Source: Euglena gracilis (lineage: Eukaryota). Taken from it: DNA of 64,000 nt. The notes under the pieces are model-generated. The model was not told where the DNA came from. It searched no databases and worked only from the letters and a program-made list of their open reading frames with translations. The stretch is taken from contig CP154954.1 in NCBI GenBank assembly GCA_039621445.1, positions 10,187,521 through 10,251,520 of the forward strand. Reading direction: 5' to 3'. Both the position numbers and the translations under genes were made by a program. Positions 5,799 through 64,000 of this stretch are shown here, piece after piece; position 1 is the first letter of the stretch; the number at the start of each line of letters is the position of its first letter.

Positions 5799-20270
<14,472 letters not shown>

Positions 20271-40389: not shown

Positions 40390-40454
<65 letters not shown>

Positions 40455-40778
40455 CACACACACACACACACACACACACCCACACACACACACACACACA
40501 CCCCCACACACACACAACAACACACACACACACACAGAGAGGAGAGAGAGAGAGAGAGCGGCGAAGTTAGGGGGAGAGAGAGAGGGAATGACGGATGGAG
40601 ATGTTGAGATTGTAGAGAGAGCAAAGAGAGAGCATGAGAGAGAGAGAGGGAGAGACGAGAGAGAGAGAGCAGAGAGAGAGAGGAGAGAGAGAGAGAGAGT
40701 CGGAGAGTATTGGGTACACCGCAGGGTGCACGAGTCTCCCTGGCCTCGGCTCTAAGTTTCCAATTTTTTTGTTGTTTA

Positions 40779-42657
40779 AACGGGAAACGTGGTCAACCCA
40801 CAACGGGTTGAGGAGGAGCCGGAGCTCGCCCGTTTTTCTCAGAACGGGTCTGTCTCCCCTGCTTTTTTCAGAGCAGGTCGGCCCCCACGGCTCGTGCCCC
40901 GCGGCAGAAGCAAGGTCAAGCTCACCGACGCGGCATTCAAGACAGCTGTGGTCTGGAGAGAAGGGCGCTGGGGGACTCCACTGATGAGGCCCACCCCCAG
41001 GCAGCCCGGGCCGAAACCACCGAAGTCCCAAGTGGAAGAAGAGAGAGCTACACGGGAAACCGTGGTCACCCCACAACGGGTGAGGAGGAGCCGGAGCTCG
41101 CCCGTTTTTCTCAGAACGGGTCTGTCTCCCCTGCTTTTTTCAGAGCAGGTCGGCCCCCACGGCTCGTGCTGTGCGGCAGAAGCAAGGTCAAGCTCACCGA
41201 CGCGGCATTCAAGACAGCTGTGGTCTGGAGAGAAGGGCGCTGGGGGACTCCACTGATGAGGCCCACCCCCAGGCAGCCCGGGCCGAAACCACCGAAGTCC
41301 CAAGTGGAAGAAGAGAGAGCTACACGGGAAACCGTGGTCACCCCACAACGGGTGAGGAGGAGCCGGAGCTCGCCCGTTTTTCTCAGAACGGGTCTGTCTC
41401 CCCTGCTTTTTTCAGAGCAGGTCGGCCCCCACGGCTCGTGCCCCGCGGCAGAAGCAAGGTCAAGCTCACCGACGCGGCATTCAAGACAGCTGTGGTCTGG
41501 AGAGAAGGGCGCTGGGGGACTCCACTGATGAGGCCCACCCCCAGGCAGCCCGGGCCGAAACCACCGAAGTCCCAAGTGGAAGAAGAGAGAGCTACACGGG
41601 AAACCGTGGTCACCCCACAACGGGTGAGGAGGAGCCGGAGCTCGCCCGTTTTTCTCAGAACGGGTCTGTCTCCCCTGCTTTTTTCAGAGCAGGTCGGCCC
41701 CCACGGCTCGTGCCCCGCGGCAGAAGCAAGGTCAAGCTCACCGACGCGGCATTCAAGACAGCTGTGGTCTGGAGAGAAGGGCGCTGGGGGACTCCACTGA
41801 TGAGGCCCACCCCCAGGCAGCCCGGGCCGAAACCACCGAAGTCCCAAGTGGAAGAAGAGAGAGCTACACGGGAAACCGTGGTCACCCCACAACGGGTGAG
41901 GAGGAGCCGGAGCTCGCCCGTTTTTCTCAGAACGGGTCTGTCTCCCCTGCTTTTTTCAGAGCAGGTCGGCCCCCACGGCTCGTGCCCCGCGGCAGAAGCA
42001 AGGTCAAGCTCACCGACGCGGCATTCAAGACAGCTGTGGTCTGGAGAGAAGGGCGCTGGGGGACTCCACTGATGAGGCCCACCCCCAGGCAGCCCGGGCC
42101 GAAACCACCGAAGTCCCAAGTGGAAGAAGAGAGAGCTACACGGGAAACCGTGGTCACCCCACAACGGGTGAGGAGGAGCCGGAGCTCGCCCGTTTTTCTC
42201 AGAACGGGTCTGTCTCCCCTGCTTTTTTCAGAGCAGGTCGGCCCCCACGGCTCGTGCCCCGCGGCAGAAGCAAGGTCAAGCTCACCGACGCGGCATTCAA
42301 GACAGCTGTGGTCTGGAGAGAAGGGCGCTGGGGGACTCCACTGATGAGGCCCACCCCCAGGCAGCCCGGGCCGAAACCACCGAAGTCCCAAGTGGAAGAA
42401 GAGAGAGCTACACGGGAAACCGTGGTCACCCCACAACGGGTGAGGAGGAGCCGGAGCTCGCCCGTTTTTCTCAGAACGGGTCTGTCTCCCCTGCTTTTTT
42501 CAGAGCAGGTCGGCCCCCACGGCTCGTGCCCCGCGGCAGAAGCAAGGTCAAGCTCACCGACGCGGCATTCAAGACAGCTGTGGTCTGGAGAGAAGGGCGC
42601 TGGGGGACTCCACTGATGAGGCCCACCCCCAGGCAGCCCGGGCCGAAACCACCGAAG
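40779..42657 (+). repeat. 272-bp tandem array, ~6.9 near-identical units, retrozyme-like
   Basis: Period of 272 confirmed by motif positions; each unit carries a hammerhead ribozyme. Confidence 0.95.
40948..41020 (+). ncRNA. Type III hammerhead ribozyme (first of 7; others start at 41220, 41492, 41764, 42036, 42308, 42580)
   Basis: GTGGTC cleavage strand, stem I TGGAG/CTCCA, core CTGATGA, stem II GGCCC/GGGCC, GAAACCAC closing stem III. Confidence 0.92.
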
Positions 42658-43427
42658 CCAAGCACGAGCGGCGCTGTCCGCGGAGACCACCCTAAACCAC
42701 CTCTGCCGGGCACGGAGACTGCCATCCTGCCCGTCATGCGGTACCAGAGACGAGGTGTACCACGCCGACGGGGCCCTGGGGTGTGGGGGCTCCCATTTTT
42801 CTGGAACACCTGGAAAAATGGACTGGCGAGACCCCCCCCCTCCCCCCCCCCCCCATGGGGGCTTGGGGGTCCTCCCGACTGGAACAAATTTTTCTTCCGG
42901 TAGCTGTGCGCGAGGTGGAAAATGAGGTTTTAATGTGTTTTTGGCTGATTTGGTCTAAAAACCCTAAAAAATGTCCAAAAATGGTCAGTTTTGGCGTTTC
43001 GGGGTGGGGTCCAATAATTTCGTGCCCGTCATGCGGGTACCAGAACGAGGTGTACCACGCCGACGGGGCCCTGGGGGGTGGGGGGCTCGCCGGCGGTGGC
43101 ATCCCCGGGCCCCCGGGCCCTGGCGCGGGGTCCGGGGGTGGCGTGAAAGGCGTGCGGAGCCCATGGGGGGAGCGCCGCCCCCCCAGCACGCACGCACGCA
43201 CGGGGACCGCCACACACCCACCAGCAGGCAAGGGAGGGGGGAGGGGGAAGGGGCAGCCCAGCGCGCCAGACAGACGGGCAGCCACCGGAGGACCGGAGGC
43301 CAAGGGAGGGGGGAGGGGGAAAGGGAAGGGGCAGCCCAGTGTGCCAGACAGACGGGCAGCCACCGGGGGACAGGAGGCCAAGGGAGGGGGGAGGGGGAAA
43401 GGGAAAGGCAAGGGAAACCCACGTGGT

Positions 43428-43565
<138 letters not shown>

Positions 43566-46063
43566 ACCAGGCTATTGCTTAAGGACCCCGGGGGTCCATG
43601 AGCTAGCCATTTTGCTGGACACTGGAAAAAATGGACTGGCGAGACCCCCCCCCCCCAGGGGGGGCGTTGGGGGTCCTCCCGACTGGAACAAATTTTCTTC
43701 CGGTGCTGTGCGCGGAGGTGGAAATGAGGTTTTAATGTGTTTTTGGCTGATTTTGGTCTAAAAACCCTAAAAATGGCCAAAAATGGGCAGTTTTGGCGTT
43801 TCGGGGGGGTCCAAATAAATTTCGGCGCTTCTAACATAGTAGTAATCCTGTGGTGCACCTTTGGGGTTGGCCATGGGCTTCGTAATACTTGCCCGCCTGT
43901 GTGCAGAAGGGGGGGGGCAATTGCACGGGGCTGCTGGATCAAACCGGCCGTCGACTTCTGCCCTCTTTCACGGACGTCTGTTTTCCGCCCTGCGCGTATG
44001 CCGCCCGCCCTCTTCCCCGCCGACTGCAGGGCGGCCCCCAGTCCCGCGCCGGCCGCCAACGCTGGGGCCCAGCCCCCCCACCCCCCCCCCCCCCCCCGCT
44101 GGCCGGCCGCCGCGGCGCCGGTCCCCCCGGAGGCCAGACCTCTCTGTTGCGGCCCGGGGTGCCCCCTAGGGGTGGTCCCCGGGGGGAGGGGGGGGGTGGG
44201 TGTGGGGGGGGCCGGCGGGGCCCCCCCCCCCCCCCCGGCTGCCTGGGGGGTCCCCCCAGGGGGGGTGGGATACTTTCGAGGCCGAAGGCGCCAATTTTTT
44301 TTGAAAAAGGTGCTATTTTTGGCATTTTCGCGATTTTTGGCCATTTTCGGGGGAAATGGAGTGGGTCCCCTGGGACCCCCCCTGGGTCCCCCCCAGGGGG
44401 TGGGTGGGGGGGGGGGACCCCCACCATCTTAAAAATGCCCCTGATTGCGGCCCCAGGGCTGTGCGGGAATCCTGCCATTATCAATGCCACCCCCCCTTGG
44501 GGGGTCTCTGCTTGGGTCGGGTTGAATTCGGTACTGTCATCAGTTGTCCCCCCCCCCCCAGGGGGAAACACCTGGGCTGCACGGGAAAGCCTGGTGGGAG
44601 GGTCATCCACCCAGGAGGTGGGGGGTCGGACCCACGACCCATAAGTTAGCCCAAGTGGCCAGCCCTCCCTCTGCAAAGTGCGGCTGAGAATTTTTTCAAA
44701 AAATGGTGGTTTGGGGGTCTTGGTGTTGGCGCGTTCTTTTTTTTGAGATGGTTGTTTGTGTGTTTGAAAGAGGTTTTTTTTTTGGCATTTGTGCAACGTG
44801 GGATTCCGAAGTCCAGCCTACCTTTGGCCCAGCATCCAGCAGCCGCCACCCTCCCCGTCCCCCCTGGGGAGCCAAACCAGCCCAAATCTCTAGCTCCAGC
44901 CCAGCAACCCCATGGTCTCAAAGAGATGTCCGCAGAGGACTGCCTCTACGCTGTACTTTCCACGGACACCTCAAAAAGCATTGCTGGAGGACTTCCCGAG
45001 CCCCATTAAGTGTGCACACTGAAAAGGTACCTGTTTGGATAGATGGGATTTCCCCTGCTGTTTTTTTCTTTTCCGGAAGTCGCCAATTTCTGCAACCGAC
45101 AAATGAGTTGACTAAGAGACGAAGACAGCTGCTATCGTTGTGGATGGGGAAGAGAGATAAGATTGGTTCCACAAATTTGGTGGCCAAAATGGTACAAATA
45201 CCTCCAGCAAAATCCTCACCGACCTATCACCATAGAACCTGTCACCTTTCTCTGTATTTTTATCGAAATTTCGACTTTTTCTCACCGAGAACGGATTTTG
45301 AAAGCGAAAAAGATGAGGGACCTCATTTTCAAGGGCTAGGTAGTGGACTTCCGCCTCAGCATCTATCTCTGTACTCGATGACCTGTCATCTAACAAATTC
45401 TTCTCAAAATTTGACACTTTCTCAGCAAGTGGAAATTTGAAGGGGAAAAGTTGGAAGAACGGGACCGCCACAAGCGCGGGGTCTACGACAAGCGTACCTC
45501 CCTTTTCGATGGGGAGGAAATCAACAAAAAAACTACACAGGTGGGGACCAAATAGAATCGCACCCCCTGCCGACCTGCCCCCGCCCCTCCAAATTAGGTC
45601 CCCATTCGTGAGGGAGACCAACTAGAGGGGCTGAGCGACTACCCTCCGTTCCACTTATTTTTGTGTGACATCATTCCACAGTTTTCGCGTGGTGAAAAAA
45701 ATGATTTTTTTTTGAGAACTATATCGGGGCTTAGTCGGGTGCCTACCCCACGGGGGGGGGTGCTAGGCAAGCATCCCATAGCACCCGATCCGACTCCCGA
45801 TACCCCGGGGGGTAGGGTTTTGGGGGGTGCCTGCCCCTAGCAGGCACCCCCCTCCGACCCTGGCGCCGGGGGTCCGGAAAAGGCCATTTTCAATGAAAAT
45901 TTTCTGGGTCCCCCCCCCCGCCCCCTATCCCCCCCGGGGGGGGGGGTGCCTGCTAGGGGCAGGCACCCTATAGCACCCACCCCCCTCCCCCCAGTTGGCA
46001 AGCACAAGCATGGTGTGTGTGTGTGTGTGTGTGTATGGGCGTTCATGTGCGTGCGTGTGCGCC

Positions 46064-46237: not shown

Positions 46238-48880
46238 ATGGAGGAGGACGAGGACCTCTTCTCCATCAGCTCCAGCTCCTCGTGCTCCACCCGGTACGAC
46301 GACGGCTCCGTCCTGCAGTCCATCGGTGTGGTTGGGCCAGGGTCCTGGGTCAAGGGCATACAATTGCTTAACACCTGTCCCACCCCACCCCACCCCCCTG
46401 GGGGGTGACTGGGAACCACACCAACCACACAAGGTGAGTGTATGCCCCTACAGCGCTGGAATTACACCAGAGTTACTCACCCGGCCAGGCGGAGCAACAA
46501 AAGAGTACTGGTGTAAGGGGTCCCTGGCCACTCACCACACAGCAAACTGGGCCAGAAGCCAAGTTAGCGCCGGCCATAAACAGACAAGAAGCCTTCGTGC
46601 AACTAAGGGGGGTGACTGACTGGTTTTTTTCAGAGTGACTGACTGGTTTTCTGGCCAAGAACCCCCCCCCCCCGGGGGGTGGGGTAGGCTCGAAAAAGAA
46701 AAAGTGACTGGCCTGGCGCTGAAGGCGCCGGATTTTTTTTGGATTTTTTGAGACTTTTTGGCAAATGCTCATTGCCTCCTCCTCATCATTCAAGAATGGC
46801 CGATCCCCCCGGGGGGGGGGGGGACTGTGACTGACTGGTTTTTGGGAAAAGGATTGACTGGTTTTTTCAGAGTGGAAAGTGACCCCCCCTCCCCCTGGGA
46901 GGTCGCTATGCAACGGTATGGTCAAGGGTTCCATGAGTAAGGTGTCTGATTGGGGTTCAGGTTGGGGCTCCGCCAGACCCTAGACCACTCTTTCCTGTGC
47001 TCCATCACAATTTTGAAGTTTCTTCCATTGCTTCTTGTGGATAGTTTTCTGTGCCCCAAGGTTGGTTTTTTTGACTGATTTCTTGGCAATTTCTTTCAAA
47101 CTGAAAAGTTGTGCACCTGGGCGAAAAATTGCTTTATATGTGGCTGACCACCCCTGCATTAGGGAGTCCAGACCCTTCCCCACAATGTTTTTGTCAAACC
47201 CTGACAAGGAGCGTTCTGAGAAGCACTTGGTATCATGGATGAGAGGATGGCATACTTTTCGAGTTCAATATCATCTGTGCCACATGTTCCTCCTGTTCTC
47301 TTTGCAAGTGGCGTGAGAAACTACCTATAAAGGCAGTTTGGGTCAAAGACTATTATTGGGACAAGACACAGTAGAAAGGCAGTTTGCGCATTCTGCAGTT
47401 CACGGAAAGTCAACATTTTGTTAAGGAATACTTACTGGGAGCATTGGAGCTCTCATGCTCTTTTACCAGAAATACCACACAGCAAACAAGCAGTCACCCG
47501 GGGACAGTCAAAACTCCTGCATTTGCCCCTCGCCGCCCTCCTCAGGTCAGCTCGACGTTCCCCAGTGCGAAACGGTGCCGGGCAGCCTGCCCCCGGGCGT
47601 GCCATTCTCCCCTCCTCGCCATCCCCTGGCGGCCGAGGTCCCGGCGCGGAAGACCGCGGACGCGGCCACCCTCACCGACCTGCCGTCCACCATCGACAGC
47701 GCGACGCTGACCACGCGCAGGGCAGACCCTCGGCCCACAGATGCTTCCACATGGTCGCCAAGCCACGGACCCAGTCTCTGTGTGGGCGGGGTTTTGAGCG
47801 TGAGTGGGTGCGTTTGGGTTGTCGGATTCCCACTCCCCTGGTCCAGCTTGCTGGTGATCGGGGCAATAATGTTTTTTGAATGTTTTAGGGTGGATGAGTC
47901 CAGGTGCCGCCTCCCTGGGTCACCAGATGGAAAACCCCCTGGGCAGCAAGTGAATAGAAGTGAATACATGCCAAGTGAACTTGTGCTCTGAATGCTGGAC
48001 GCACATTTACAGGCTCCTCATCCCGTTTTGTGGAATTTTGAGTGGGTTATTGTGAAATAGTGTGCTAGAATAAAGCCCAGTGACGCCAGTGAGTGTTCTC
48101 GTCTCCTTTCGGCTGTGAAGATCTAATCAAAATTTGAACCAGGATTTTGGGCTTCATCCTGAGGTGGTGAATGGCGTACTTCACACAGCTCACCTGATTT
48201 TTAACTTTTTACTCCCAGTCCACAAAGTTTTTTTTTTTGCATTGCCTGCCCTCCCTTTTCGGCATGCTGGAAAAAAGAGCAGTCGATGTTTTTTGTTTCC
48301 AAGTTTCACGTGCGTGGGACTCCTGACCTCGCGCTGTCTGTGCCGGTGGCCTGCCTCTGGCAGCGCTGCCATGCGCCACGCTGCAGCGGACCACCTTTGT
48401 GCCGGTGCACGTCAGCCCCCCACCGCCACGCCGCCCCTACCGGCAGGTCGCCGTCGATTTGCGCGAGGGCCACACGGGCGAGGAGCTTACTCTGACTGAC
48501 AGTGTGCCCGTTCTTTGCATTCGATGTGGCCCCGATTGCATGCCCCCTCCAATATATGTGTGTTTGTGTATTTTTTCATGTGTTGTGTGTGTGTGCATGG
48601 ACACATAACACGTAACCATGTGTACACACAAAGGTATGCCACCCCAACAAAAATATATGTTGTGTGTGTTGCGTGTTGCGTGTTTGTGTTGTGTTGTGTT
48701 GTGTTGTGTTGTATTGTGTTGTGTTGTGTGTTGAGTGTGTTTCGGTATTGTTGCAGGCCTGGACTGTACGCTGCCGACAGACCTGAACACCACCGTGGAG
48801 TACCCACGGGTCGGGGCGGCCGCCCCCGCGCCGCCCGCGGAGCGCGTGGCCACCCGGGAGGTCGGGGCGGGACCCCCCTG
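46238..48880 (+). CDS. Exons of a low-complexity protein, either a separate gene or the N-terminus of the downstream GTPase
   Basis: [14 protein letters not shown]...LQSI joins [11 protein letters not shown]... (47546) across a phase-1 GT-AG intron; further exon-like segments near 48331-48500 and 48757-48860. Confidence 0.5.
46357..46920. mobile_element. CATAC-family MITE carrying a nested ~200-bp retroposon-like insert (46411-46608)
   Basis: Perfect 8-bp TSD GTCAAGGG; nested insert flanked by a GGGGTGACT duplication. Confidence 0.9.
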
Positions 48881-48984: not shown

Positions 48985-49281
48985 CAGGTGTTTTTTTTTT
49001 AGTCGTGGACCCCTGGGGGGGAGAGGGGGGAGGGTGGATGGGTCCGGCCGAGCCCCCCCCCCCCCCCCGGGGGGGATTCCCCCCAGGGGGGAGTGGGTTA
49101 TACTTTTCGGCACCAAAGGCGCCGAAAATTTTTGAAAACAGTGCTATTTTTAGCATTTATGCGATTTTTTGGCCATTTTCGGGGAAAATTCAGTGTCCCC
49201 GGGACCCCCCTGGGGGGCCCCCCAGGGGGTGGGTGGGTGGGTGGGGGGGACCCCCTCCCCCCCGGTCTTAAAAAACCCCTG
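48985..49281. mobile_element. hAT-like MITE
   Basis: CAGG...CCTG ends; perfect 8-bp TSD GCAGAAGC. Confidence 0.9.
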
Positions 49282-49772
49282 GCAGAAGCCCTCGGGGCTC
49301 TCTGAAACTGTGCTGGGGCCAGGAAGTTCGCACCTCCCTTCCCCAGGGGGGGTATGGGCCAACAGGGGGAGGGGTCGGAAGACACACGGGGTCGGGCTTT
49401 GCGGTAGGTGGATATATGTAGCATCCCCTTGGGTGCCGACAATGGCCATGGGCAAGGATCAGTGGGCTGAATCGGCCGGCTTTTGAACCCCCACCGGGGG
49501 GGGTGCCTGCCCGGGGGGGTGTAAGGGGTCCCTGGCCACTCACCACACAGCAAGCTGGGCCGGAAGCGAAGTTAGCGCCGGCCATAAACAGACAAGAAGC
49601 CTTAGTGCAACTAAGGGGATGCCTGTTATGTTAGAGGGGCCTGTTATGTTAGGGGGGCCTGTTATGAGCAGGCACCCCACCCCACCCCACCCCTCCACCT
49701 TGGGGTTGGTGACCAGACGCCTGGGAGGGGCAGTCCGGACCTCCCTTTGCAGGGGGGGCCCGGCTGAGTTGC

Positions 49773-52700
49773 ATGGCCGGCCCAGCCGAGCCGGGGCCAG
49801 GCTGTAGTTTAGTCGGGTGCCGACCCCACCCCGGGGGGGGGGGGGGGGCCTGCCTGGGCAGGCACCCCAAGGCACTCCAAATCCGACCCCCGGGGGGAGG
49901 GGGCGGTAGTGGCTGCCTGGGCAGGCACTCACAGGCACTCCGGACCCCCCCCCCGAGGTTGGTAAAAAAACAGCCTGGCCGGGACCCTCCCACCAGCTGG
50001 ACAAGGATCGTCTGCAGCGCAGCCTCGATCGCTTGAAACAGGCCTTCCCCAAAAGCTCCACCAGACAGGTGCACCGCTTGGGTTAGCGCTGTGAGACTCT
50101 TTGTGGCTTCCCCACCTCTCTCTTTTGTTCTGAACAGGTGCTCTATTGTGTTCCCTGTTTTTTCCTCTGTTTCAATCTGCCTTTTATTTGAGTGAACTGT
50201 CCGTACTGGCAAGGGAGCCACAACTGGTGTCGAAATTTCCCAGCCAAGCTGTTCAAAACCACTCCAAGTCAACCATCCCCGCAGGTGAATTGTGTGCTGT
50301 TCGGCCGGCAAGGCAATGGCAAGTCCAGCCTCATCAACAGTATTTACCAGACTCTCACTGGCAGCTCTGCCCGTTTATGTGACGAGGTGGCGTCCCTCCT
50401 TGTCCAGCCTTGAGACACACACGCGCGCACGTACGCACACGCGCACGCACGCACGCATGCGTGCCCGCAAGCCACAGCTGTGTTGTTCAGTCAACAGTGC
50501 AATCTGATCAGAGTACATAGTTTAAAAAGATCTGAACCATTATTGAACAGTTCAAGTATACTCATCTGCTGCCTTTTTTGAGACAGATGATGAGCCCTGT
50601 CCATTACGGCATAGGCCAAAATTCGCGAGCAGAATATGAAAATTTTCAACAGTATGGGACGATTTCCAGGAATCAAGCCCACCCAAACAATATACAACGC
50701 TGTGTGCCCCAACTCAGCCCCCCCCCCCGGGTCTTCCCGGGGGGGGGTCAAAAAGAATCCTGGTTTGGACTTTCCAACGTGACAGGGGGTCCAGGTGGCA
50801 AATGAAAACAACTGACACCAGTCTGTGGTGTAAGATGTGGTTGGAAAGAGGTTTGCCGTAGCGGGGCCACTTGGGGCTTTTCTTGGTGGCGCCAATTGGT
50901 GGAGGGGCGTCTGGGGCCAGACCCCCCGGGGGGGGGGGCACCTGAGGCCCGAGGTATGGGTTTCGCACAAATCACCGAAAATTTTTTTGGGAAACGCCTC
51001 CAAATGACCCCATTTTTTTGGCGGGCTGACCTCTCTGTGGTCCCGGGCTTGGTGGATAGGTGCTCCCCCCCCCCCCCCCCGGGTCACAAAACAAAGTCTG
51101 GTCTCCACCAGGGCTCTCCGGGAGATTTTGGCCCCCCCGGCTTGTTGCCGCTGGCTGAATTCTCAGGTGATGGTTTCCTGCCCCACACCACGTCGCTCCG
51201 TTTCGGCGCTTCAACGTGGCAAATCTCGGCCAGGTGCCTTGTGGACTTCCTTCTCCAGGGCGCCGGGGACGCCTCCAAGACGGTCCGGTACGCGCTGTGC
51301 GACCTGCTCTGCCAGGAGGGCGCCGCCCCGCTCAACCTGTTCGACACCAAGGGACTGGCCGATGCCGGCCATGCTGCTGTTTGGCCGGGCTGTGTGTTGG
51401 GCGTTGCCGAGCCTGGCCAGTTGCTGCATTTCAACTATGACTTGGCTGGTGCATTTCAAGTATGACAGTCCGACACGGTAGATATTTATGTGTAATGGCA
51501 AGACGAAGACACACTGGCTGTGATAAATGGTCAAATTTAAAGTTGATTTCATGGAAGTATATATACATATATAGTATACATAGTATATATATATACTATA
51601 TATGTATACTATATATATACATATGTAGTATACATAGTATATATATATATATATATATATAGTATACATAGTACATATATATATAGTATACATAGTATAT
51701 ATATATATATATATAGTAGATATATAAGTATTTAGCTGCCCAATTTGCTGGTTTTGTCCCCAAACAACAATCCACCCCCCCCCCCATTATTAGCCCCGCG
51801 GGAGGAGGGCAAAACATGTTGGTGTTTTTTTTTTTGGATGGATGATAAAATTTTTCGCAGAAGTGTTTCATGTTGGGAAAAATGACAATTTCGGGAAATT
51901 TGGATGGTACACAAAAAAATTGGAATAAGGTAGCGAAAGCATTTGGAGGCCACCCAAAAAAGTTTTGTTTCCCCACAACAGTCATCAAAATTGCACACAA
52001 TGATGTGTGCCACTTATAACAAGGATTTGCCTTCAAACATCCTGACACATGAATAACTCATTAAACAAAGAAGGGGTGGTGGCCAACTTGTTCACGCCAT
52101 CCTCAGCCTGGAAAACAAAATGTGACCGATGAACAGAAGCATGCCACCGATGATGCTGCCACAAATAAATTGCTCTCCCGCATCCTGAGGGGGAAGTTCA
52201 AGCCCAATCACAGTATGAACAATCCCAAATGGTGTGTGGTGCGAATGTTGTAATTCCGTGTGGTGTGTGTGTGTATATGCGCATATGTGTGTAAGGTTGT
52301 GTGTGTGTGTGTGTGCCTGTTGGTAGATGTTGTACAACCCAAAACAGTGCCTCACCTCCCACTCTGTTATGTGTGTCCGACGTCATATGCAACCCCAGGG
52401 TTTAATATGGAAAGCTCAGGATTTGTTGGGAGGGTTCCTCCACCCCCCTCTTTGACCAGTGGACACCCAGACCAGCACACATCAATTGTTAAAGACACGC
52501 AAACGACAAGACGCTGGACATCCAGACCGGTATTCATCAGTTGCGGAAACACGCGGATAGCACGTCGCACTCGTCATGCACCGTGCCGCAGCTGTTCCAT
52601 TCGCGGCCGGTGTGCCGCAATGGGTTTGCCTCCCTCCCCCAGGTACGACGCGTACGTGGTGCCGCAAGTGCCTCTGAAGGTGGACGCCGTCGTGTACGTC

Positions 52701-54704
52701 CACGCCTTCGGCGCCGCGTTCGCCTACCGCCTCGCCGCCGCCGTTGCCCGCCAGGCGAAGGCCCAGGGCATCACCATTGTCCCTGTCATCACATGCTACG
52801 ATTTGGTGGAGCGGTGTGTGTGTGTGTGTGTGTGGGTGGGTGGGTGGGTGGGTGGGTGGGTGGGTGGGTGGGTGGGTGGGTGGGTGGATGTGGGTGTATG
52901 TGTATGTGTGGGTGCGGGTGTGGGTGTGTGTGTGTGGGTGTAGGTGTTGTCTGCAATGTGCGGGGCCCAAAGGGGTGGGTGACCGAAGGTGCTTGTACGT
53001 GTGCACATGTGTACTTGTGTGGTGTGTGCGCGCGCGCGTGTGTGTGTGTTTGCGTATGCGTGACTCTGAAGGGTGCTGTTTGTCTCCTCTATCTCCTCTT
53101 TCAGGCCGCCTGGTTTTGTGAAAAGGATGCCTTTGGGGGTTTTCCTTTTGGGTTGTGACAGTTCTGCTTTTGTGCTTTCCTACCTTGACCTTTGTTTTTG
53201 CAGGCCTCAGGATCTCCAGGTGGAGGTGGAGACCGTGCTTCATTGCATGAGCCACCAAGCCTTTAGGGTGCCCAGGGGGGAGCGCATCCTCTCCGTTTCT
53301 TTTCTATTTTTTTTTTAAAATTTGGCAAAGTTTGCGGGGTTTATTTTTGCTTTTTTTATGTCTTTTGGGGGGCAATTTTAGAATTCTGCTGAGATACTCA
53401 CCCACCTTGAGAATTTTTGCATTTTGGACCGAATTTTCCCTTGAGAGTGTGGCCTCCTTGAGGATTTTGGTCTCCCCCGGGGCTAAAATTCTGTCTTTTT
53501 GTGTTCTCTGTACATATTATATACATGATATGATGTGACATGATATGATATGATACCATATGATATGATACGATGTGATATGATATGGTGTGATATGATA
53601 TGATATGATATGATATGATATGATATGATATGATATGATATGATATGATATGATATGATATGATATGATATGATAATATGATATGATATGGTATGATATG
53701 GTATGATATGATATGATATGATATGATATGATATGATATGATATGATATGATATGATATGATATGATATGATATGATATGATATGATATGATATGATATG
53801 ATACGTACGATATGAGATATATATGATAGAACATGCATATATGGAATATATCATATGTATGATAAATATGTATGTGCACATGGATATTTACATACATACA
53901 TATATCTTGTATATATCATATCGGGCAGGGGGTTTTTGGCTGCGGCTGTCAGCAGTGGCACAGCGGGGACCTGCTCCAAGGTGTTCAACACCCACCCCTT
54001 CTGCCTCGCCAACCTCTCCGCCCTCCGCACCAAGTACCCCGCCCCGGGCCTCCTGGAGGCCCACAGGCAGGATGCGGCCCCGTCCTTCATTTTTTCCCCG
54101 GTACTCGTTTTCGTTCCCCAAAAGCATACCACCACATGACATGTTTTTATGAATTTAGTTTGATTTGGACCATTCCTTGCCTGTGGATTTTCCTTTTGCC
54201 CATCAATTATCAGACCGTATAATAACCTCATTCTTTTGTTGCCATTGCGATCATATTGCCGTATGTAACCCCCAAATGTGAAGCCCCCGCCCCCCAACAA
54301 TATAAACCCCCTCTCAGGGGGTTTGTTTTGCCGCCCAAATATAAAGCTCCCCCTCCCCCCTGACGTGGAGCCAGACATTTGTGTTCTTCACCAAAAAGTG
54401 GAAAATTTTGGGTGGATACAACTTTTTTTTTCCACCAGAAATACTCCATTTTGGAGAAGAATTGCACATTTTCGCGAAAAATAGGAAGTACACAACGAAA
54501 ATTTGGCATAAAATTGGTATTTGGCCACAATTGAAAGCTGCTGAAGGTCGTAGAGGCCACCCGCAAAAGTTTGATTTCCTCCCCCGAATATGAAGCCCCC
54601 CCCCATTTTAAGCCCCGCTGAGGGTCTTGAAATCCCGTCCAAATGTAAAGCCCGGGTGGGGGCTTTATATTTGTGAGTTTACATGTATATTCATGTGCAT
54701 ATGC

Positions 54705-54735
<31 letters not shown>

Positions 54736-54757
54736 CATGTATGTGTATATGTGTATG

Positions 54758-54803
<46 letters not shown>

Positions 54804-54913
54804 ATGTATATTTGGGGCTTTATATTTGGGGGTTTACATGTATATGTATATGCATATGCACATGCACATGTATATGTATATGTATATGTATATGCATATG
54901 TATATGTATATGC

Positions 54914-54978
<65 letters not shown>

Positions 54979-55548
54979 GCAGCCATAATCTACATGCCCC
55001 CCCCGGGGGGCCATGTAGTGTTTCCAGGGGGGGGGGCATTTTTTTTTTCGTTAATGATGGAATAGAGTTAGGTGCGCGACTTAGGCTTAGGGTTAGGCCT
55101 AACTTGTACACCGAACACCCGTCTATAAGTTAGGCCTAACCCTAACCCTAAATCGCGCACCTAACCCTATTCCATCATTACCGCAAAAACACTATTTTGA
55201 CCCCCTGGATAATCTAACCCCCCCCCAAATAACCCCCCCCCCCCGGTGTGTTATTTGGGCACCCGAACTGGAGCCCCAGGGGCGGTGTGTTATTTGGGGG
55301 GGTGTTATTTTTACATGGAAAACCAAAGGAAAACAGGGGGGGGTGTTATTTGGGCGCTCGAAATCGGCCCCCGAGGGGGGGGTGTTATTTCGGGGGGGGG
55401 TGTTATTTGGGGGGGTGTTATTTGGGGGGGGTTTACATGGCCCCCCCGGGGGGACATGTAGATTATGGCTGCCATGTATATGAATATGTACATGTACATG
55501 TGTGTATGTATGTGTATGTGTATATGTACATGTATATGTATATGTTTG

Positions 55549-55580
<32 letters not shown>

Positions 55581-55583
55581 CAC

Positions 55584-55676
<93 letters not shown>

Positions 55677-56285
55677 CATATGTATATGAAAATGTATATG
55701 CATATGTCTGTGTATGTGTATGTATATGCACATGTTTGTGCATGTGCATGTATGTATGCATGCACACATATGCATGCACACACCTTTTATCTTTTCCCCT
55801 GTTCTGTCACCAGTGCGTTTTTAAATTCTCTATTAAACTGCATCACCCCAAGATGTTTCTCAATTTTGAGTGATGCTTATCAAAAATGCTGGCAGGGTGC
55901 CCATTCTGGCGCAGAATTATTTGCGAAGGGCACGGTGGTGGATCTGGTGTCTCAGCTGATGACCAGGGTTTGGTATAATATGGTGGATCCGTTAGAGGGG
56001 GGGGGTTCCCGTGAACCGGAAGGGGATTTGGATTAGGTACCCGGGACCGCCTCCAAAAAGCTCACATTTTTTGCGCTGATAGTTTTTTTTTTTGCATTTT
56101 GGCAAGTTTTTTGCCAAAATGGCTTTTCTGGAGGCAAATTTTTTCTCAAAAAACAGTCACCTAGACCGACTGTCCCCACCCCTTCCTTGACCGGAGGCGG
56201 GGTTTTGACCCCCCCACCTTAAATATTGAATCCTGCTGATGACCTTTGGCCAGCAGCACCAACGCGCCAACGGTTATGCCACAGA
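49773..56285 (+). CDS. Multi-exon P-loop GTPase, IFI44-like
   Basis: Exons 49773-49794, 49983-50068, 50285-50386 ([17 protein letters not shown]1), 51259-51363 (LFDTKGL, G3), 52643-52813 (VITCYD, G4-like), 53204-~53247, ~53948-54063, ~55895-55960 and 56241-~56285; several GT-AG joins are phase-consistent; ends uncertain. Confidence 0.75.
53525..53805. repeat. (ATATG)n microsatellite
   Basis: Direct reading. Confidence 0.95.
54978..55473. mobile_element. MITE with GGCAG termini inserted in an (ATATGT)n tract
   Basis: Perfect 19-bp TIR GGCAGCCATAATCTACATG; microsatellite on both sides. Confidence 0.85.
55961..56240 (+). other. Non-conventional intron that is a MITE with a perfect 8-bp TSD
   Basis: TSD CTGATGAC on both sides of CAGG...CCTG; splicing gives QLM|TFGQ in frame. 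Confidence 0.85.
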
Positions 56286-58474
56286 CAAGCCATTTGTATA
56301 CAAGACCTCTGGCGGTGACCTCTCCTATTTTTCAAGAAAATATTTTTGCTTGAAAACTGTCACAGTGAGGTCCCCAGCTGTGTCAATTACCACTCCTCCC
56401 CCCCTTATTGTCCCTGGGTCCCTGCCGACGGAAGCTTTTTTTTTGTCTGGTCCAATTATCCCTAATTGCCCCCCCCCCTTATTGTCTGATCCGGTTCCGG
56501 GGAGCAGGTTAGTGGGACAACAGGAGGGTGGGGGTGCCATTGTGGCTTATCTTAAGAAGTTTTCTGGTGTTTTCCCGTTCGAGCAAAAGTGCTGTTGTTT
56601 CAAGAAGGTTTTATGCCAAGCGGCAACCCTCCCCACACCCGAGGGGTCGTTGGTCATTTACCGGGTGGGGGGGGGCAGTCGCGACGTGTTTCCCATTTTT
56701 TGGGGGGTTCCACGGCCCCCGGGAACTTGCCAGATTTTTGGTCGACCTTTGTTGGGTTCTGGGAGGGTGCGTGCTTATTGTTAGGAAAGGGGTTAAAATT
56801 AGGATTGGCGAACCGAAGATTGGGCCGATTTAGGGATGAGGTTTTGCTGGAAGTTTGGTTCGAAAGGTTTTCCGGCCTCCTTTTCTGCCCAATGGAGCCT
56901 AAATTATTCCTGATCTCCTACAAATCCGGCAAAATCCGGCAAAATCTGGCAAATTCGGCAATTCCAGCAAATCCAGCAAATCCGGCCCGCCAGTCACCAT
57001 GACCTGAATTGGGCCCCATCCCTTGCAATGACCCGGAACAAGTTCTCCCAGTGTGCCCCCCCCCCCACCCCCCACCAGACCAGCCTGACGGCATCGGCCA
57101 CCGGCGGCCCAAAGCACCCGACTGGACCAGAGTGGAGGAGGGGGGAGGGGTTTTGAAGGGGCGCACCTTTGGGAGGGTGCACCTTGGCGTGGGGGTCTGG
57201 GCTTCTGTTTCAGACGTGGGGGAGGAGAGGCAGGGACACCTGGAGAAAAGCCACCCCTCCCCAATGGTCTGACCGGGGGTTGACAGAAATGCATGAGAAG
57301 CCCTGAGGGCCGACTTCTTGATCGAAGAATATCTCACCAATTTTCTCCAGGGAGTTCAGCCCATTATCCATGAGGCAATGATTGACAAAAACTTCAAAAT
57401 TCTGCAACATATCGTGCACTATTTTTCTGGGCATATTCTTTTCATATTTGTGGACAGCATTTTCCTGGGACATATTCCATTCTTTTCATAACTTCGGAGT
57501 TCGATGATCTGATGCAGTGTTCATTACCCATGTGCATTTCATTAGAAAAGGATCATTCTGTACCTTAGTTTTCCCACCCAACAGAAAAAATGTGAATAAA
57601 TACGAAGGTCTTTTGCATTTATTTTGCAGGCATTTATTTTCGGTTTTGTCCTCCAAATTTCATGCAGCATGTTTTTCTAATTTAAGTGTGGGAGTCTTTA
57701 GTCATTTTCATTTATTTATTTTTGGTAAAATGTCAGCTGTCTGGATTGACGGGTTTGATGGGTTTATGACATCCGGGGGAGGTGGGCTTGGCCTGCGCGA
57801 GGTCACAACCTCGACTGCCGCATGATGTAATTACCAACCCCTTGCCGACCCCCTCCACCCTCCCCTCGTGACTGTCCCCGGCCACCGTGCCTGGCACCAC
57901 TCGTGCCTCGAAGTTGCAGCCTCCGCAATGCAGATTGTCTTATTCGCCTCCCGGACCAAGGATGGGTATTGGATATTGACCCATATCGTCAGCCTTATTG
58001 ACGATCTTGAATTTATCAGGTCCCGAAAAAGTATTGTGAAATATCGGCTTTATTGGGGGGGAGGTTCTGCTGGTTTGTTGTTTTTTTGGGCGATTTTGGG
58101 ATTCTCCAAATCAGAAAAATTAGGATATCGGAGCACAAAGTGGTCATATCGGTTTTATCGACTTTTATCGAGGATATCGGGGGGTCAATCTATCCAAATT
58201 TATCGGGACCCCACCTAAACCCAATATCAATATGCATCCTTCCCAAACCCCTTCAGCCACGGTTTGTGGGATTAACCCCCCCAAGGTTAGACCCCCCCCC
58301 AGAGAAAATTAATCTCCTGACCGAGCGAAAATCCAGAGGTAAGAATTATCGAGTTTATGGCGTTCATTTGTTATAAATAAACAAATGAATGTGAATATTT
58401 CACCTGCGCCATCATATTCCTGAACCTCTCTGCAGGGCGGCCAACCCCCGCCTGGTGTGGCCGGGCCAGTCTCC

Positions 58475-61400
58475 ATGGGCCCCATCAAGGACATCCGCTT
58501 CCTGGCGCTGGAGGAGAGTCCTGGGGCAACAGGCGTAGTGGCCGGACCGTCGCTTGGGGACGCCGCCTGGATTGGCTCGATGGCATCCGGGGGCTCATCT
58601 TTCGCATTGGCTTGTCAAACCGATATACGAACAGCCGACCCCTTTCCCTGTTTCAACGAATACATCTGGCAGCTTTGATGTGTTTGCTCGCCCTGTACAA
58701 TTTGCTCCTGCTCCCCAACATATGAGATAGATTACCAGTCCATCGAGAGGCTTTCTGATACTCATTTTGAATTTACTGATTCATTTTTTTTCTGCCCCTG
58801 GAATCCTTGTGGTCTCAGTGGCCTGCATCTCCCACCCACCCGCCTTCCCTGCGCGCTGCTGTCCGCCACAGATTGTCATCGACGTGTGCCGTGCATTCAC
58901 CACCGCTGCGTATGCTTTCTCCTCCGGGGCAGAGCGGATCCTTCTGACTGGGGCAGGCAACAGCTCTCAGATTTTCCCCGCTTCATTTCCCTCCTCCCTC
59001 TCATGACACATCAAATACCCTCGTATTTCACTCCCCACCTTGCATTCTCCCTGCATGTTTTTTTTAACTTTTGAGCCTACGTTAAGCTTTCCCCACCAGA
59101 CATTTATCATCTGGAAAATTGCCGCAGCACAGCTGTCACCTGACTTCAGAAATGGTCAGTGGTTTCCCCCGTGCAAAGTATTGTGGTGGGTGGAGCAAGG
59201 TATTGAGTGAAATTTGGTTTGGTTCCTCCCTTTATGTCCAACGACGTGCAATATCAGCCCTCTGAAAAGGGCGGGGGGAGGTGTTGTAGGACATGGGGTT
59301 CTGACCAACAAGATGTCCTTCGACCAGAGGTCGGTCGTTGGACAAAGGGTCAAAAAAGCGCCCACGGACTCGGGGAAGTTCCCTCCATCCCCTCCAAAGG
59401 TCCTTTTTTTTCTTTCATTTCGGCGCGAATTTCCGGTTTTCGAAAAGCATTCAGAAACACACAACACATGCAAAAATGAACCCTGCGATACCGACCCACT
59501 GTGTGCCGCACACGGTGTACACGGTATACGTACATCTCTCAAACCCCAAAATAGCCGACATTTCCGTGTGCATTTGTTCCGACCCAGTTTCCCCGCAAGA
59601 CACACGGTGTGTGCCGATCCTCATGTGGAGCGTTGAGCAGTGGCCTCTGGCAACGGTGGACGAGGCCCTGGCGCTGCGGCAGAGCGTGCCCGGCTCGAAA
59701 ATCATCGGTGAGGCCCACGGCGCCGTTTACTGACCATTGGGGGCCAATTTGAAAACGGCTAACTGTTCGCTGAGTGTTGCTTCTGTGCCAATGGCTCATC
59801 CGCTGATTTCCCACCGCCCCACAAAGAGCAGAATGAGTGATTCTATGTGTTTCAAAAGGGGGAGACTGGTTTTTTCCCCCTTTTATACTTCAATTGTCTG
59901 CCGTGGCAAAAATGCAAATGTGCTGTGTGCTCCCTGTGTTTTCCGGTGTCCCCAAATTTCAATGAAAGATTTGGTGTGCAAACATACAAATACCACACCG
60001 ATGCATCCCCCTCCAATTGAGCATTTCGTTGTGGACTCCTTCAATGAGAATTTGAGAAATCCCGAGAAATGAAGGCGAATTGCAGGAAAATGTCGAACGA
60101 CAGCAACCATATCTACACAATTGACACCTATGTATGCAATTTTTTCCTGGAACGCTGTTAAATTGGTGCATTTTTTCCCCTCCAAAGTGAGCCTCTTCCG
60201 TCTCCTTCCCAGTTTGGAACGAAGCAACAAATTTTGACGTCCTAGTCCAAATTCCAGTGACCTCACACATCCGGCGACACCCATATTTTAGGCACCAGTT
60301 TTCCCTCTGGCAGGTTGACGGGTACCTAAACTTTAAAACCAGATAGGTCCAAGCAGGTCCGTCCCGCAGGTCCATGTCTTGCCCGGAGGCGACACCCCCA
60401 CCTACAGCAAGCATTTACAGTCCGGACAAAATATCGTCACCAGCACCGCAAATGAACAAAGCACGCGGGGGAGGGGGGTATTGCGCGCCTTGGACCGCCT
60501 TTCAGGCAGGCGACAAAACAGCTCGCGTGGGCCCAAAGCGACAAACGTGATGACTTCCCGGGGTAGGTGACAAGCTCAAAGAACCCTCAAAGCCCAACAA
60601 AATTGGCCAGATAAAAAAGGGATAAAACTGCAATTCCCCATCCCCCCGTGATAATATCCCCTGAGGTTCATATGGGCACTCGGCCAAGACACATCCGCGC
60701 CGAAACCTCAAACAGGTGCCGGGAGCCCCCAAAAAACTTTTTGGGCACTTTTTGGCCCATGATCAGGCAGGCACCGACCACCCGGGAGGGGGGAGGTCGG
60801 CCTTGCCATAAAATTCAGCCTGGCAGGAACGGTGTCATCCGCCACGTTAGCCAAGACCAGCCCCCGAAACATTTGATTGCCAGCCACCCCCCGGATAAAA
60901 TGTCCCCTGGACAACCTGTGGTGGCAACTGCTGCAGTGGACTTTTCAGCACCCCCCCGGGGACAATAATTATGCAAACCTATCTGATTTTTTCCATATTT
61001 TCTCCCGTAATTTTTTGTCCAGTGCACCTTTCCTACGCCGGTTGGGGGAGCCACTCTCAGGGGCAGTCAAATTTCATACACAAATACACAGGGTTATGTT
61101 ACGTTGTTGATTCTTGGGGTTTATTTTGAAATGAAAATTACCTACCCCCCCCGGGAAACTGTCATGCCCGAGAACCTGTCAGGGTCCCGCCCGGGAAACT
61201 GTCAGGGTCCCCGGTACCGGCCAACCTGTCAGTATAGGAAGTTGTCAGGGTCCCCGGTACTGGCCAACCTGTCAGGGTCATTTTTCATTGACTTTCTCTT
61301 GAAATGCCCTACCCGGGAAACTGTCAGGGTCCCGCCCGGGAAACTGTCTGTCAGGGTCCCCGGTACCGGCCAACCTGTCAGTATAGGAAGTTGTCAGGGT

Positions 61401-63310
61401 CCCCTGTACTGGCCAACCTGTCAGGTGACAGTTTCCCGGGGGGGGGGGTAGGTACAAGAATCATCACCAGAAGTCCATTTTGACCATTTTTTTGGGATTT
61501 TTGGAATTTTCGAGTTGGAATACTGCAAGAAAATATTCATTGTAGGTGAAAAAAAAGCTCGTTTTTTTCGAAATCAAAAATTTCCCGTGGTTTTTCCCAC
61601 CTGTAGTATATTATCCGTGATCTGGTACCCCCCCCCCCGTCTCAGCACCCCCCCCCCGGTTTTCTACAATCATCTTCTCGCGGAGACTTATTTTGCGTGT
61701 TTTTTTTTTCGGAAATTTTGAAATTTTAGAAACGTCTACCTGAATTTTGCGTCCAAATGCCTGTAAGTCCAACAGTGGACCCCAAAAGAATTTCGCGCCG
61801 CATTTTTTTTTTGCAGTCAAATGACCTCCCTTTTTCTGCAACACCTCCTGGTTCTTACCCATACTTTGGAAAATTAAGCAACCCCCACTTCTTTCCCCCC
61901 CCCCCCGATGCCCAACGACCCCCTATGTCCAACGACCCCCCCCAGTCGGAGGACACAGGTAACCAGTTGTTGGACATAGGGGGGGTACCCGCTTTCAGAC
62001 CATCATTTCCGTTTCTTAGACAGATTGAGGCAATTTTTGTTTGCACCCTCCAGCCAACCAGGGCGGACCACAGGTGACTGCCCTCCAGCCCCCCCCCCAC
62101 TCCTGGTGCCTGTGTGAGCCGATGCAAACGGTGCCGTGCGACTCGTCGGCGGCCTCCCGGTGGCCACTTTCGACCTCTGGAACTCGCCGGTGCAGGTCAA
62201 GGCGGCCGACCTGCGGGGCTGCACACTGGCGCCCCGCCGCCCGCAAACCCGTCGCCCGCGCCGGGCGACGTCAGGCGCGCGACGGGTCACATGTGTACGT
62301 ACATGAATGGCCCGAGTGATAATGCCGTGCCACTTCGGGTATTCGGGATAACGGAATCACCGTGGAGTGGCACATGTGTGTCCCGGTTAAACGTCTCGGC
62401 TGTTCGCCAGGAACCGTTCGCACATCTTTGTGTCAGTCGCTGTCTCTTTGCAAGTAAAGCACAATGCCCCAATGCAATTGCACGCTGGACGCTGTAACAC
62501 TTGGGGCGGGTATCTAAGATGGCAAATGCCAGCCGTCAGCAACCGCCAGTCAAACCTGTGAAAGGCTCTGCAGTTCATCAGTTTCTGTTTCCTGCTGCAC
62601 TGGAGAACTTCTTTGTTTGTTTGTTGACCCTGGTGACCCGGGTTGGGCTCTACCTCTCCCTTTGGGGGCCGGTCCTTGTGGAGACCCGAAACAAAAGGCA
62701 ACTGTTTTGAATGCTTTTCTGGGCTTTTGTTTTTCTAATTGTCCTGAAAACAGCAAATTCTGCGGTCCGCATCCCACCCCCTGCTGAATGCCACCGTCGG
62801 GAAGGGTTGTGTTTTTCCTTCGGCATGATTTCTTTGGGATCCCAAAGTAAATCCGAAGAGTGTGCCTCCAAAGCTCTTGCACGCCCCAACGGGTTGCTGG
62901 TGTTGGGAATGCCCCCCCCCCCGCGGATCAAATAGAGCAGAAAAAGAGAATATAAAAAAAACAGTTTATTGAAATAATTGAATTAATTTTAAATAATTTA
63001 AAATTGCTAAAATGAATTTAAACAAGTTGCAAATAATAACTAATAAATAAATTTAAATAAAAATAAAATGGAAAAAAAATTAAAATTAAAAATAAAGTTG
63101 AAAAGTTGAAGTTAAGTCAAAACCATCAATGACCAAGTTCTTCACAAATCAAAAAAGGGGGTGGGCAGCCCTTGCAGTGGGCGGCGGGGCGGGACCGATC
63201 CAGCGCACGACGGCGGGCACGCAGGGCGTCGTCCGGGCGGCCGGCGCAGCGCTGCTGCTGACCGCCTCGTTCGCCGTCGCCACCGCCACCGCGCGCCACG
63301 TGTTGCAGTA
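58475..63310 (+). CDS. comB: 2-phosphosulfolactate phosphatase (ComB) family protein; C-terminus probably beyond the window
   Basis: Exons 58475-58539, 58871-~58949 (IVIDVCRAFTTAAYAF), ~59650-59712 (TVDEALAL...IIGE), 62145-62227 (VGGLPVATFDLWNSP) and 63197-~63310 (QRTTAGTQGVVRA...ASF); motif order matches ComB (VIDVLRA, GE.GG, FD.GNSP, TTNGT). Confidence 0.85.
61143..61452. mobile_element. MITE with internal CTGTCAGGGTCCC repeats
   Basis: Inverted ends CTACCCCCCCCGGGAAACTGTCA / TGACAGTTTCCCGGGGGGGGGGTAG; related sequence at ~63843-63960. Confidence 0.75.
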
Positions 63311-64000
63311 CGCGGCCGCCTCGTCCGGCCACTGCCACCGCTGGGCTACTGTGGCTGGCCGTGTTCTGAGTAGGACCCCACAGTTTCCGGGGGGGGGGGG
63401 GTACCCCAAAAATATGAAAAATGAAATGGCAATTAAAAAAAATGAATTTTAAAGAATTTGAAATTGAACTTAAAGTGAAGAATAATAACGCCCACCTGTG
63501 AAATAAAAGTTCAATAAAAAAAACTCCCACCTGGGGGTCGTTAAGCAGCGCCCTGTTAAGGACCACCCTGCATTGAATGGAAGATTTGTTGAACCCAGCC
63601 AATCAGTTGAGCCCACCACCCGACGCTCAGCGCCAGCTGGCCTGTTTCGACCTATCCCCTTTTCGGGTGACTGCCGGGTCCGCCCCTATCGATTCCTGGG
63701 AGACATGGGAATTCCGGCCGCCCTGTGGATGATGCACGGAGGTCTCCTCCGCCACGTCCGCTCATTTTTTGGGCTTTTGATTCAAAACCACAAACTTGAA
63801 ACTGTACTTTTGGAGCCGTTGTGAACCCAAATTTCTGTGGTTCCTACCCCCTCCCGGGAAACTGTCACCTAAACCCCGTACTCTATGACCTGTCACCTCA
63901 GGGACCTGTTACACAACAAAAGCCCCCCTGCCTCCCCGTGGGAAACTGTAACCTGACAAGTAAGCGAGCACAGAGGCAGGCATGCCAGACTCCCCCCAGG

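Follow-up and report, generated by a model that had tools for sequence, protein, structure and literature searches.

The origin of the non-conventional introns of euglenids has been an open question since the 1990s. These introns share borders that are not GT-AG, a CAG at positions +4 to +6 and a CTG at positions −8 to −6, paired ends, pyrimidine|purine (Y|R) junctions, a downstream exon that begins R-A-C and direct repeats at the junctions. In 2016, Huff and colleagues reportedly described transposon-derived introns, termed introners, in algae such as Micromonas and Aureococcus. Here we analyze a 64-kb stretch of Euglena gracilis DNA (contig CP154954.1; hereafter the window), in which a 272-bp stretch with CAGG...CCTG ends interrupts the coding region of EG_transcript_5013, the gene for a P-loop nucleoside triphosphatase (NTPase), and lies between two copies of the 8-mer CTGATGAC. 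We consider it likely that this stretch represents a transposon that inserted into an exon with an 8-bp target-site duplication and that is removed seamlessly by non-conventional splicing.

Several parts of this proposal have precedents, cited throughout from the available portions of the papers concerned. An origin of non-conventional introns from MITEs (miniature inverted-repeat transposable elements) has already been proposed (PMC3935182), and "TIR (usually CAG and CTG)", TIR standing for terminal inverted repeat, and "TSD-like" repeats, TSD standing for target-site duplication, have been described (PMC11282704). In E. agilis, about 70% of introns are non-conventional, and a 2025 report called their origin unclear and suggested "MITE-like elements" (PMC12501133). 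Direct repeats have been reported at the junctions of these introns, including 8-nt repeats at a recently gained gapC intron of one E. agilis strain, which were read as break repair (PMC4770533). Among spliceosomal introns, introners use the duplication and leave mRNA length unchanged (preprint 10.1101/2022.06.06.494994). Introners of Micromonas, Aureococcus, dinoflagellates and others share with the intron studied here TIRs, target duplications, insertion into exons and an unchanged mRNA length, with part of the removed sequence provided by the duplication; in those systems, cutting is by the spliceosome, and the GT or the AG comes from the duplication. In contrast, the focal intron would depend on the non-spliceosomal, or at least non GT-AG, cutting of euglenids, the fit coming from fixed 3-nt and 5-nt offsets around the ends of the element. 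In the main-text literature searched, supplements and subscription papers aside, we found no mention that the 3-nt and 5-nt spacers add up to the length of the duplication, no description of CAG-ended repeat families with 8-bp duplications in Euglena, and no link of these Euglena introns to hAT or any other named superfamily.

The two copies of CTGATGAC occupy 55956-55963 and 56236-56243 on the + strand and enclose the 272-bp stretch at 55964-56235, which starts with CAGG and ends with CCTG. The initial annotation of this DNA had reported an 8-bp repeat around a CAGG...CCTG stretch, which is present at exactly these positions, with the refinement that the full exact direct repeat is 10 nt long (GCTGATGACC, 55955-55964 and 56235-56244) and reaches into CAG and CTG by one base each (C and G, respectively). 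As a word, CTGATGAC is not unusual, occurring three times in the window against 1.38 expected and at least three times in 16 of 100 shuffles; the unusual point is the placement of both copies relative to CAG and CTG. Positions 1-5 of the left copy belong to the exon and positions 6-8 form the 3-nt spacer of the intron, and positions 1-5 of the right copy form the 5-nt spacer and positions 6-8 the first bases of the next exon. The ends of the enclosed stretch form a stem of about 12-13 bp with G-U pairs included: in the centroid fold, a 12-nt segment that starts at 55965 (the A of CAG) pairs with a 12-nt segment whose last base is 56234 (the T of CTG), and the terminal stem run of the intron reaches 13 with G-U pairs counted. 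The whole-fold z-score of the intron is only −2.3.

Comparison with the published splicing code showed that 11 cut registers give identical mRNA at this site. GT-AG or GC-AG borders arise in 0 of the 11, and a single register, 55960|56241, places CAG at +4 to +6 and CTG at −8 to −6. In this register, the intron spans 55961-56240 (+ strand; 280 nt = 3 + 272 + 5), both junctions read T|G and hence Y|R, the downstream exon begins GAC, and the sequence removed equals the CAG...CTG stretch plus one 8-mer. The geometry put forward in the initial annotation, in which offsets of 3 and 5 nt amount to one 8-bp copy, QLMTFGQ is restored and the junctions are Y|R, is therefore borne out by this register and by the transcript-derived protein described below. 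The exact cut positions are presumed, the 11 registers being equivalent. Knock-in mutagenesis in E. gracilis found CAG, CTG, the 3-nt donor spacer and the 5-nt acceptor spacer all to be required, and the introns are excised as full-length circles (PMC12501133 for both; PMC11282704 for the circles). By its splicing features, the focal stretch is a spliced euglenid non-conventional intron and an ordinary member of its class; it is unusual in keeping an intact insertion footprint.

The host gene was retrieved by a search with the exon at 52602-52811, which returned the EukProt entry EG_transcript_5013 (protein P0002) at 100% identity, a match that identifies the window as Euglena gracilis nuclear DNA. 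Seeding with exact peptides and enumerating junctions placed the gene, which encodes 680 amino acids (aa), at 37265-57827 (+ strand); in the window it comprises 23 exons separated by 22 introns, of which 10 are GT-AG, 11 non-conventional and one not resolved. The region had been annotated as GTPase coding sequence: its coding status was upheld by the transcript-derived protein, and a GTPase is plausible without being established, Pfam yielding sub-threshold P-loop matches for the protein and similarly weak ones for single exons. The upstream exon (55914-55960, + strand; aa 637-652) ends with the first 5 nt of CTGATGAC, a 17-residue peptide maps to 55914-55964, and peptide mapping placed the downstream exon at 56241-56310 (+ strand; aa 653-675). 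P0002 reads through the focal site, including QLMTFGQ, and the 280 nt are not in it; this continuity indicates that they are absent from the mRNA. RNA reads were mapped from 55783 onward only, because long microsatellites fill the introns directly upstream. In RNA run X21, the element falls in two 274-nt bins, whose mean depths were 5.75 and 12.0, and depth reached 41 at 56298. This pattern agrees with reads that cover the 47-nt and 70-nt exons and leave the element uncovered, and the loose ends of 27 X21 reads carry the end of the preceding exon joined at 55914. The upstream microsatellites, (ATATG)n and (ATGTAT)n, lie at 53514-53828, 54683-54978 and 55474-55721.

To account for this arrangement, we propose that a 272-bp non-autonomous DNA transposon with CAGG...CCTG ends inserted in a coding exon of the P-loop NTPase gene and would thereby have duplicated its 8-bp target, CTGATGAC. 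In the pre-mRNA, the two ends of the element would pair, and euglenid non-conventional splicing, following the rule from the literature, would place its cuts 3 nt ahead of CAG and 5 nt past CTG. As 3 + 5 = 8, the element would leave together with exactly one copy of the duplication, restoring the pre-insertion frame (..QLMTFGQ..). Such an insertion would be silent, leaving no mark in the mRNA, and could persist as an intron. The transposase behind the event and its superfamily are conjectural, and for the focal element, the only copy of its kind in the window, we infer by analogy an arrival by the route of the repeat-family members described below. The proposal of the initial annotation that the splice register reflects the length of the TSD is, in our judgement, the best reading of the locus, and the window contains a class of elements with CAG or CAT ends and 8-bp duplications.

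The whole analysis rests on this one 64-kb window, in which we examined every CAG...CTG pair with a spacing of 40-3000 nt and complementarity at 11 or more of the first 15 nt (n = 348). Exact flanking repeats of 5, 6, 7, 8, 9, 10, 11 and 12 bp were found at 0, 0, 2, 5, 0, 0, 0 and 0 of these pairs, respectively, and two further pairs match at 7 of 8 flanking positions. Within the 8-nt register, matches were bimodal, with 14, 4, 2 and 5 pairs at 5, 6, 7 and 8 matching positions. First-order Markov simulations of the window produced an 8-bp match in 0 of 100 runs and six pairs in all that reached 7/8. When all 64 end trinucleotides were compared with a complexity filter in place, 8-bp matches appeared only for CAG (three) and CAT (two). 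The focal pair itself scores 9/15, and at that threshold the number of 8-bp matches is six. The complexity filter was used in place of a Tandem Repeats Finder (TRF) mask at score 30, which removed three of the five true matches; an unfiltered 8-mer scan and an unmasked all-trinucleotide control were swamped by microsatellites and a 272-bp tandem array. The initial annotation had suggested a genome-wide test for enrichment of 8-bp repeats at young non-conventional introns; among the CAG...CTG pairs of the window, flanking repeats cluster at 8 bp and were matched in none of the 100 simulations. It had also held that repeats no more frequent than chance would speak against the idea, and here the outcome is divided: the CAG...CTG class lies above chance (5 versus 0/100 simulations), and 13 of 15 mapped non-conventional introns are at background.

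These numbers bear on the view that the focal repeat is a chance event, a long case of the short direct repeats common at euglenid splice sites. Such repeats make 84.4% of E. agilis introns "slidable" (PMC12501133), and the other non-conventional introns mapped here have junction repeats of 0-6 nt. The mapped set comprises 15 introns, 11 in the host gene and four in the next gene, among which the 10 exact nt at the focal intron form the longest junction repeat. At a background identity of about one third, roughly one intron in 7,000 would be expected to show an 8/8 match. Together with the 8-bp matches among TIR pairs (five observed against none in 100 simulations), this makes coincidence extremely improbable.

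Analysis of the individual elements, for which no strand was assigned, revealed several families and further elements. The two longest are a 1382-bp CAG...CTG element at 2540-3921 (TIR 13/15, TSD GTCGGTAC) and a 1265-bp CAG...CTG element at 27383-28647 (TIR 12/15, TSD CTTTTGAC), both TSDs being 8 bp long. Family A is represented at 22708-23149 (TIR 14/15, 8-bp TSD ACCACCAT), with relatives at 19836-20097 (91%), 43568-43831 (79%) and 42810-42995. Family B has copies at 31480-31970 (TIR 14/15, 7-bp repeat CCTGTGG) and 35624-36086 (TIR 14/15, TSD CTCACATT/CTCACTTT, 7/8), which are 89% alike with homology running exactly from CAG to CTG. Family C, with CAT...ATG ends, includes 37455-37786 in host intron 1 (TIR 14/15, 8-bp TSD GCCCTGAC), 46357-46920 in a GT-AG intron of the host gene (8-bp TSD GTCAAGGG) and a decayed third copy at about 17921-18270, the three being 80-85% alike. 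A CAG...CTG element at 48985-49281 in the intron after aa 403 (TIR 11/15, 8-bp TSD GCAGAAGC) has a relative at 44172-44425 (79%), and a further element at 13369-13514 has a 7-bp repeat. The weakest case is the CAG...CTG pair at 44257-44384 in the unresolved host intron (8-bp repeat GGTCCCCC), whose ends are low-complexity G/C runs and which the complexity filter removed. A segment of about 200 bp (46411-46611, 25154-25354, 26100-26301 and 49518-49618; 95% alike) is nested in the family C copy at 46357 and absent from the other family C copies, an element within an element.

In the family alignments, homology opens with the C of CAG or CAT and closes with the G of CTG or ATG; beyond these borders, families B and C have unrelated flanks, and each intact family copy has its own flanking 8-mer. 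Taken together, these features mark the elements with CAG or CAT ends as mobile multi-copy families with 8-bp target duplications, located both in exons and outside them. They also bear on a spread through RNA, in which a circular intron would have been reverse-spliced into a transcript, or a cDNA recombined at 8-10-nt microhomology. Excision as full-length circles, whose junction would re-create the 8-mer, speaks for that route (PMC11282704, PMC12501133), and the 10-nt homology at the focal site fits a microhomology event. However, for families B and C and for the related pair 49798/33599 described below, homology ends at CAG or CAT and at CTG or ATG with the spacers excluded, which argues against spread through spliced RNA, since that would carry the 3-nt and 5-nt spacers along. 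With a different 8-mer flanking each copy and no donor of the focal element seen in the window, we regard RNA-mediated spread as very unlikely.

Four of the elements (37455, 44257, 46357 and 48985) lie inside introns of the host gene, where splicing selection cannot account for their repeats; their signature therefore stems from insertion. This location matters for the proposal that the focal repeat is a scar of double-strand-break repair, in which a break with an 8-10-nt stagger was filled in, filler DNA was captured, and CAG...CTG ends were retained by survival of those inserts that could be spliced. Milanowski et al. (2016; PMC4770533) offered this reading for the gapC intron, and it would suit a focal element that is unique in the window, has single-copy depth and carries a repeat of 10 nt rather than 8. 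It does not predict the same ends and 8-bp repeats on multi-copy families and inside introns free of splicing selection, repeat lengths that concentrate at 8, lengths of 5, 6 and 9-12 being absent, or target sites that share a motif. Capture of filler DNA is accordingly an improbable source of this intron.

The focal site is not the only candidate for insertion of a transposon into coding sequence, two exon-splitting elements being seen in the window. The second, at 49798-49977, occupies the non-conventional intron after aa 412 of the host gene (49795-49982, + strand; 188 nt), in which CAG and CTG are in register. It has a perfect 8-bp TIR (CAGGCTGT/ACAGCCTG), and its flanks, GCCGGGGC and GCCGGGAC, match at 7 of 8 positions. 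A relative at 33599-33711 (+ strand) is 88% alike over 84 nt; its homology to the element begins exactly at CAGGCTG, and the flanks are unrelated. The intron after aa 412 is thus an exon-splitting copy of a repeated element. When intron ends were compared with the window by blastn, relatives were found only for this intron.

A number of observations weigh against an origin of the focal intron, and of its class, by transposition with an 8-bp duplication. At the focal site, the repeat is 10 nt long, so that a duplication of 8, 9 or 10 bp fits equally and 8 is not forced, and the inverted ends are weak, with 4 perfect bp and Watson-Crick pairing at 9 of the first 15 positions. The blastn search of the 64-kb window for relatives of the focal element returned poly-T and low-complexity matches only, and DNA depth over its 3' part is 94.6 against 76.4 in the flanks, compared with 3.7e4 and 8.4e5 for true repeats; at 95% likeness or more, the element is single-copy by depth. 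Given the lack of a relative and the single-copy depth, membership of the focal element in a mobile family rests on analogy. The RNA junction 55960/56241, which the initial annotation had named as a check, found agreement in an RNA depth confined to exons, and the joint itself is not among the joints listed (15 of 150) for the mapped RNA reads. Within the wider class, two members (31480-31970 and 13369-13514) have 7-bp repeats, none of the ten open reading frames (ORFs) of the elements at 2540-3921 and 27383-28647 has a Pfam domain and no transposase was found in them, and a TA duplication rather than one of 8 bp flanks the most abundant MITE of the window (61145-61448). Among the 15 mapped non-conventional introns, CAG and CTG are in register in only four, and in the 13 introns other than the two exon-splitting elements, identity in the 8-nt window (36/104) is at the background level of neighbouring windows (31/104 and 37/104).

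Comparison with DNA contigs addressed the age of the insertion. A contig from run X1 covering 56162-57215 differs from the window by 24 substitutions and 18 gap letters per 1050 nt and keeps the last 74 nt of the focal element, with one change at 56231, together with the right repeat. At 56298, 27 of 41 X21 RNA reads carry G in place of A, G being the variant of the diverged contig. Two expressed haplotypes that differ by about 2% are thus present, and the one not represented by the window, at least, holds the element. A second expressed-allele site in X21 is 58892 (T/C, 41/62 reads; 58451-58892). The description of the insertion as fresh in the initial annotation is not supported by these data: a contig about 2.3% diverged still carries the 3' part, no relative was found in the window, and depth is that of a single copy.

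The ends of hAT elements are CAG-like. Their TIRs measure 10-25 bp and their duplications 8 bp (PMC3942097), and the 8-bp duplications of Hermes, a hAT element, follow nTnnnnAn, with many GTnnnnAC (PMC2803484). We counted target preference on ten 8-mers, a small sample of 20 half-sites: 10 of the 20 have A as the seventh base of the target (P = 0.011), six of 20 end in AC (P = 0.0007) with TGAC four times, and three of ten sites, the focal 8-mer among them, fit the full nTnnnnAn (P = 0.017). Compared with the 10-25 bp of hAT TIRs, the focal element has 4 perfect bp and a score of 9/15, and families A-C reach 14/15. The class thus resembles hAT elements (Hermes, hobo, Ac/Ds) in three respects, namely the 8-bp duplication, the CAG-type ends and the target preference, and differs from them in the CAT ends of family C, the two copies here with 7-bp repeats, and the poor TIRs and lack of relatives in the window of the focal element. 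The label hAT-like given to the element by the initial annotation is supported to this extent by TSD length, end motif and target preference, and membership in the superfamily is unproven, no transposase having been found. On these sequence features, hAT is our best guess, not a finding.

The same mechanism driven by a non-hAT transposase, whether from another superfamily with 8-bp duplications, P-like, Merlin-like or of an undescribed kind, is possible and, in our view, doubtful. The CAT...ATG ends of family C, the two 7-bp cases and the lack of a hAT transposase in the ORFs of the two long elements would sit well with it, and Merlin elements, the only DNA transposons with 8-bp duplications that we found documented in E. 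gracilis, are known from this species (PMC8101967). All Merlin ends described there start with GG directly after a duplication of 8-9 bp, whereas the elements here start with CAG or CAT directly after the repeat, and their targets favour T as the second and A as the seventh base, often with a terminal AC, as in Hermes. Merlin itself was rejected as a candidate for the focal element: the repeat abuts CAG, or AGG if it is taken as 10 bp, and no register gives GG...CC ends beside the repeat.

If transposition of hAT-like elements is the source of the focal intron, its target preference may extend to the exon consensus of the class. Downstream of non-conventional introns, the consensus is a purine in 55 of 55 cases, then A in 43 of 55 and C in 30 of 55 (PMC4770533). 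These bases correspond to target positions 6-8, and they may reflect a target preference rather than a splicing signal. As a tentative extension, most non-conventional introns could derive from hAT-like CAG...CTG elements, with the 3-nt and 5-nt offsets deleting one duplication, the Y|R junctions and R-A-C reflecting target preference, and a splicing machinery that may derive from, or have co-evolved with, the enzyme of the element. The 13 introns with no footprint would be either old or of other origin. One of them, the non-conventional intron after aa 510 (51364-52150), has CAT...ATG in register, like the ends of family C. It also shows a 7-nt in-register match, ATGCTGC, between intron positions +5 to +11 and exon positions +5 to +11, which lies outside the 8-nt window and may be due to chance.

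Other repeats in the window are of different kinds. The commonest, at 61145-61448 in an intron of the neighbouring gene, is a MITE-like, very high-copy element with a 20-bp perfect TIR (a C-run, then GGGAAACTGTCA) and TA on both sides. Summed over contigs, its depth is about 8e5 in two DNA runs, in which single-copy DNA has about 50-100, and its borders show loose ends with unrelated flanks on both sides in all four runs. A second high-copy repeat lies between the two genes at 57975-58248, with summed depths of 3.7e4 (X1) and 2.3e3 (X2). A GT-AG intron of the host gene, 3677 nt long, holds a tandem array at 40780-42657, in which a 272-bp unit recurs 6.9 times with copies 99% alike; (CA)n at 40390-40536 and (AG)n at 43433-43563 flank the array. 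Rfam gave no match at the gathering score over 49000-64000, and a screen of ORFs and composition for further genes found no convincing exon in 5000-37000.

The next gene, EG_transcript_21163 (58435-63326, + strand), encodes a member of the 2-phosphosulfolactate phosphatase (ComB) family (Pfam E = 4e-33) and begins only about 600 nt after the stop of the host gene. Ahead of 58435, RNA reads have a loose end, ATTTTTTTTC, which we take to be the end of the Euglena spliced leader and which would make 58435 a trans-splice acceptor. The first intron of this gene, 58540/58871 (52 and 29 junction reads), is readable as GC-AG and has CGG/CCG paired ends.

In sum, the window supplies concrete objects for a long-standing proposal, namely CAG-to-CTG repeat families with 8-bp duplications that occur as introns in exons and elsewhere. 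They offer a simple arithmetic reason for the 3-nt and 5-nt rule of euglenid splicing, in that the two spacers together would equal one duplication, and they suggest that the exon consensus at these introns may be a target-site preference. The hypothesis becomes testable genome-wide on existing assemblies and intron tables. Should it hold, the introner principle would extend to a second splicing system, one that does not use GT-AG borders.

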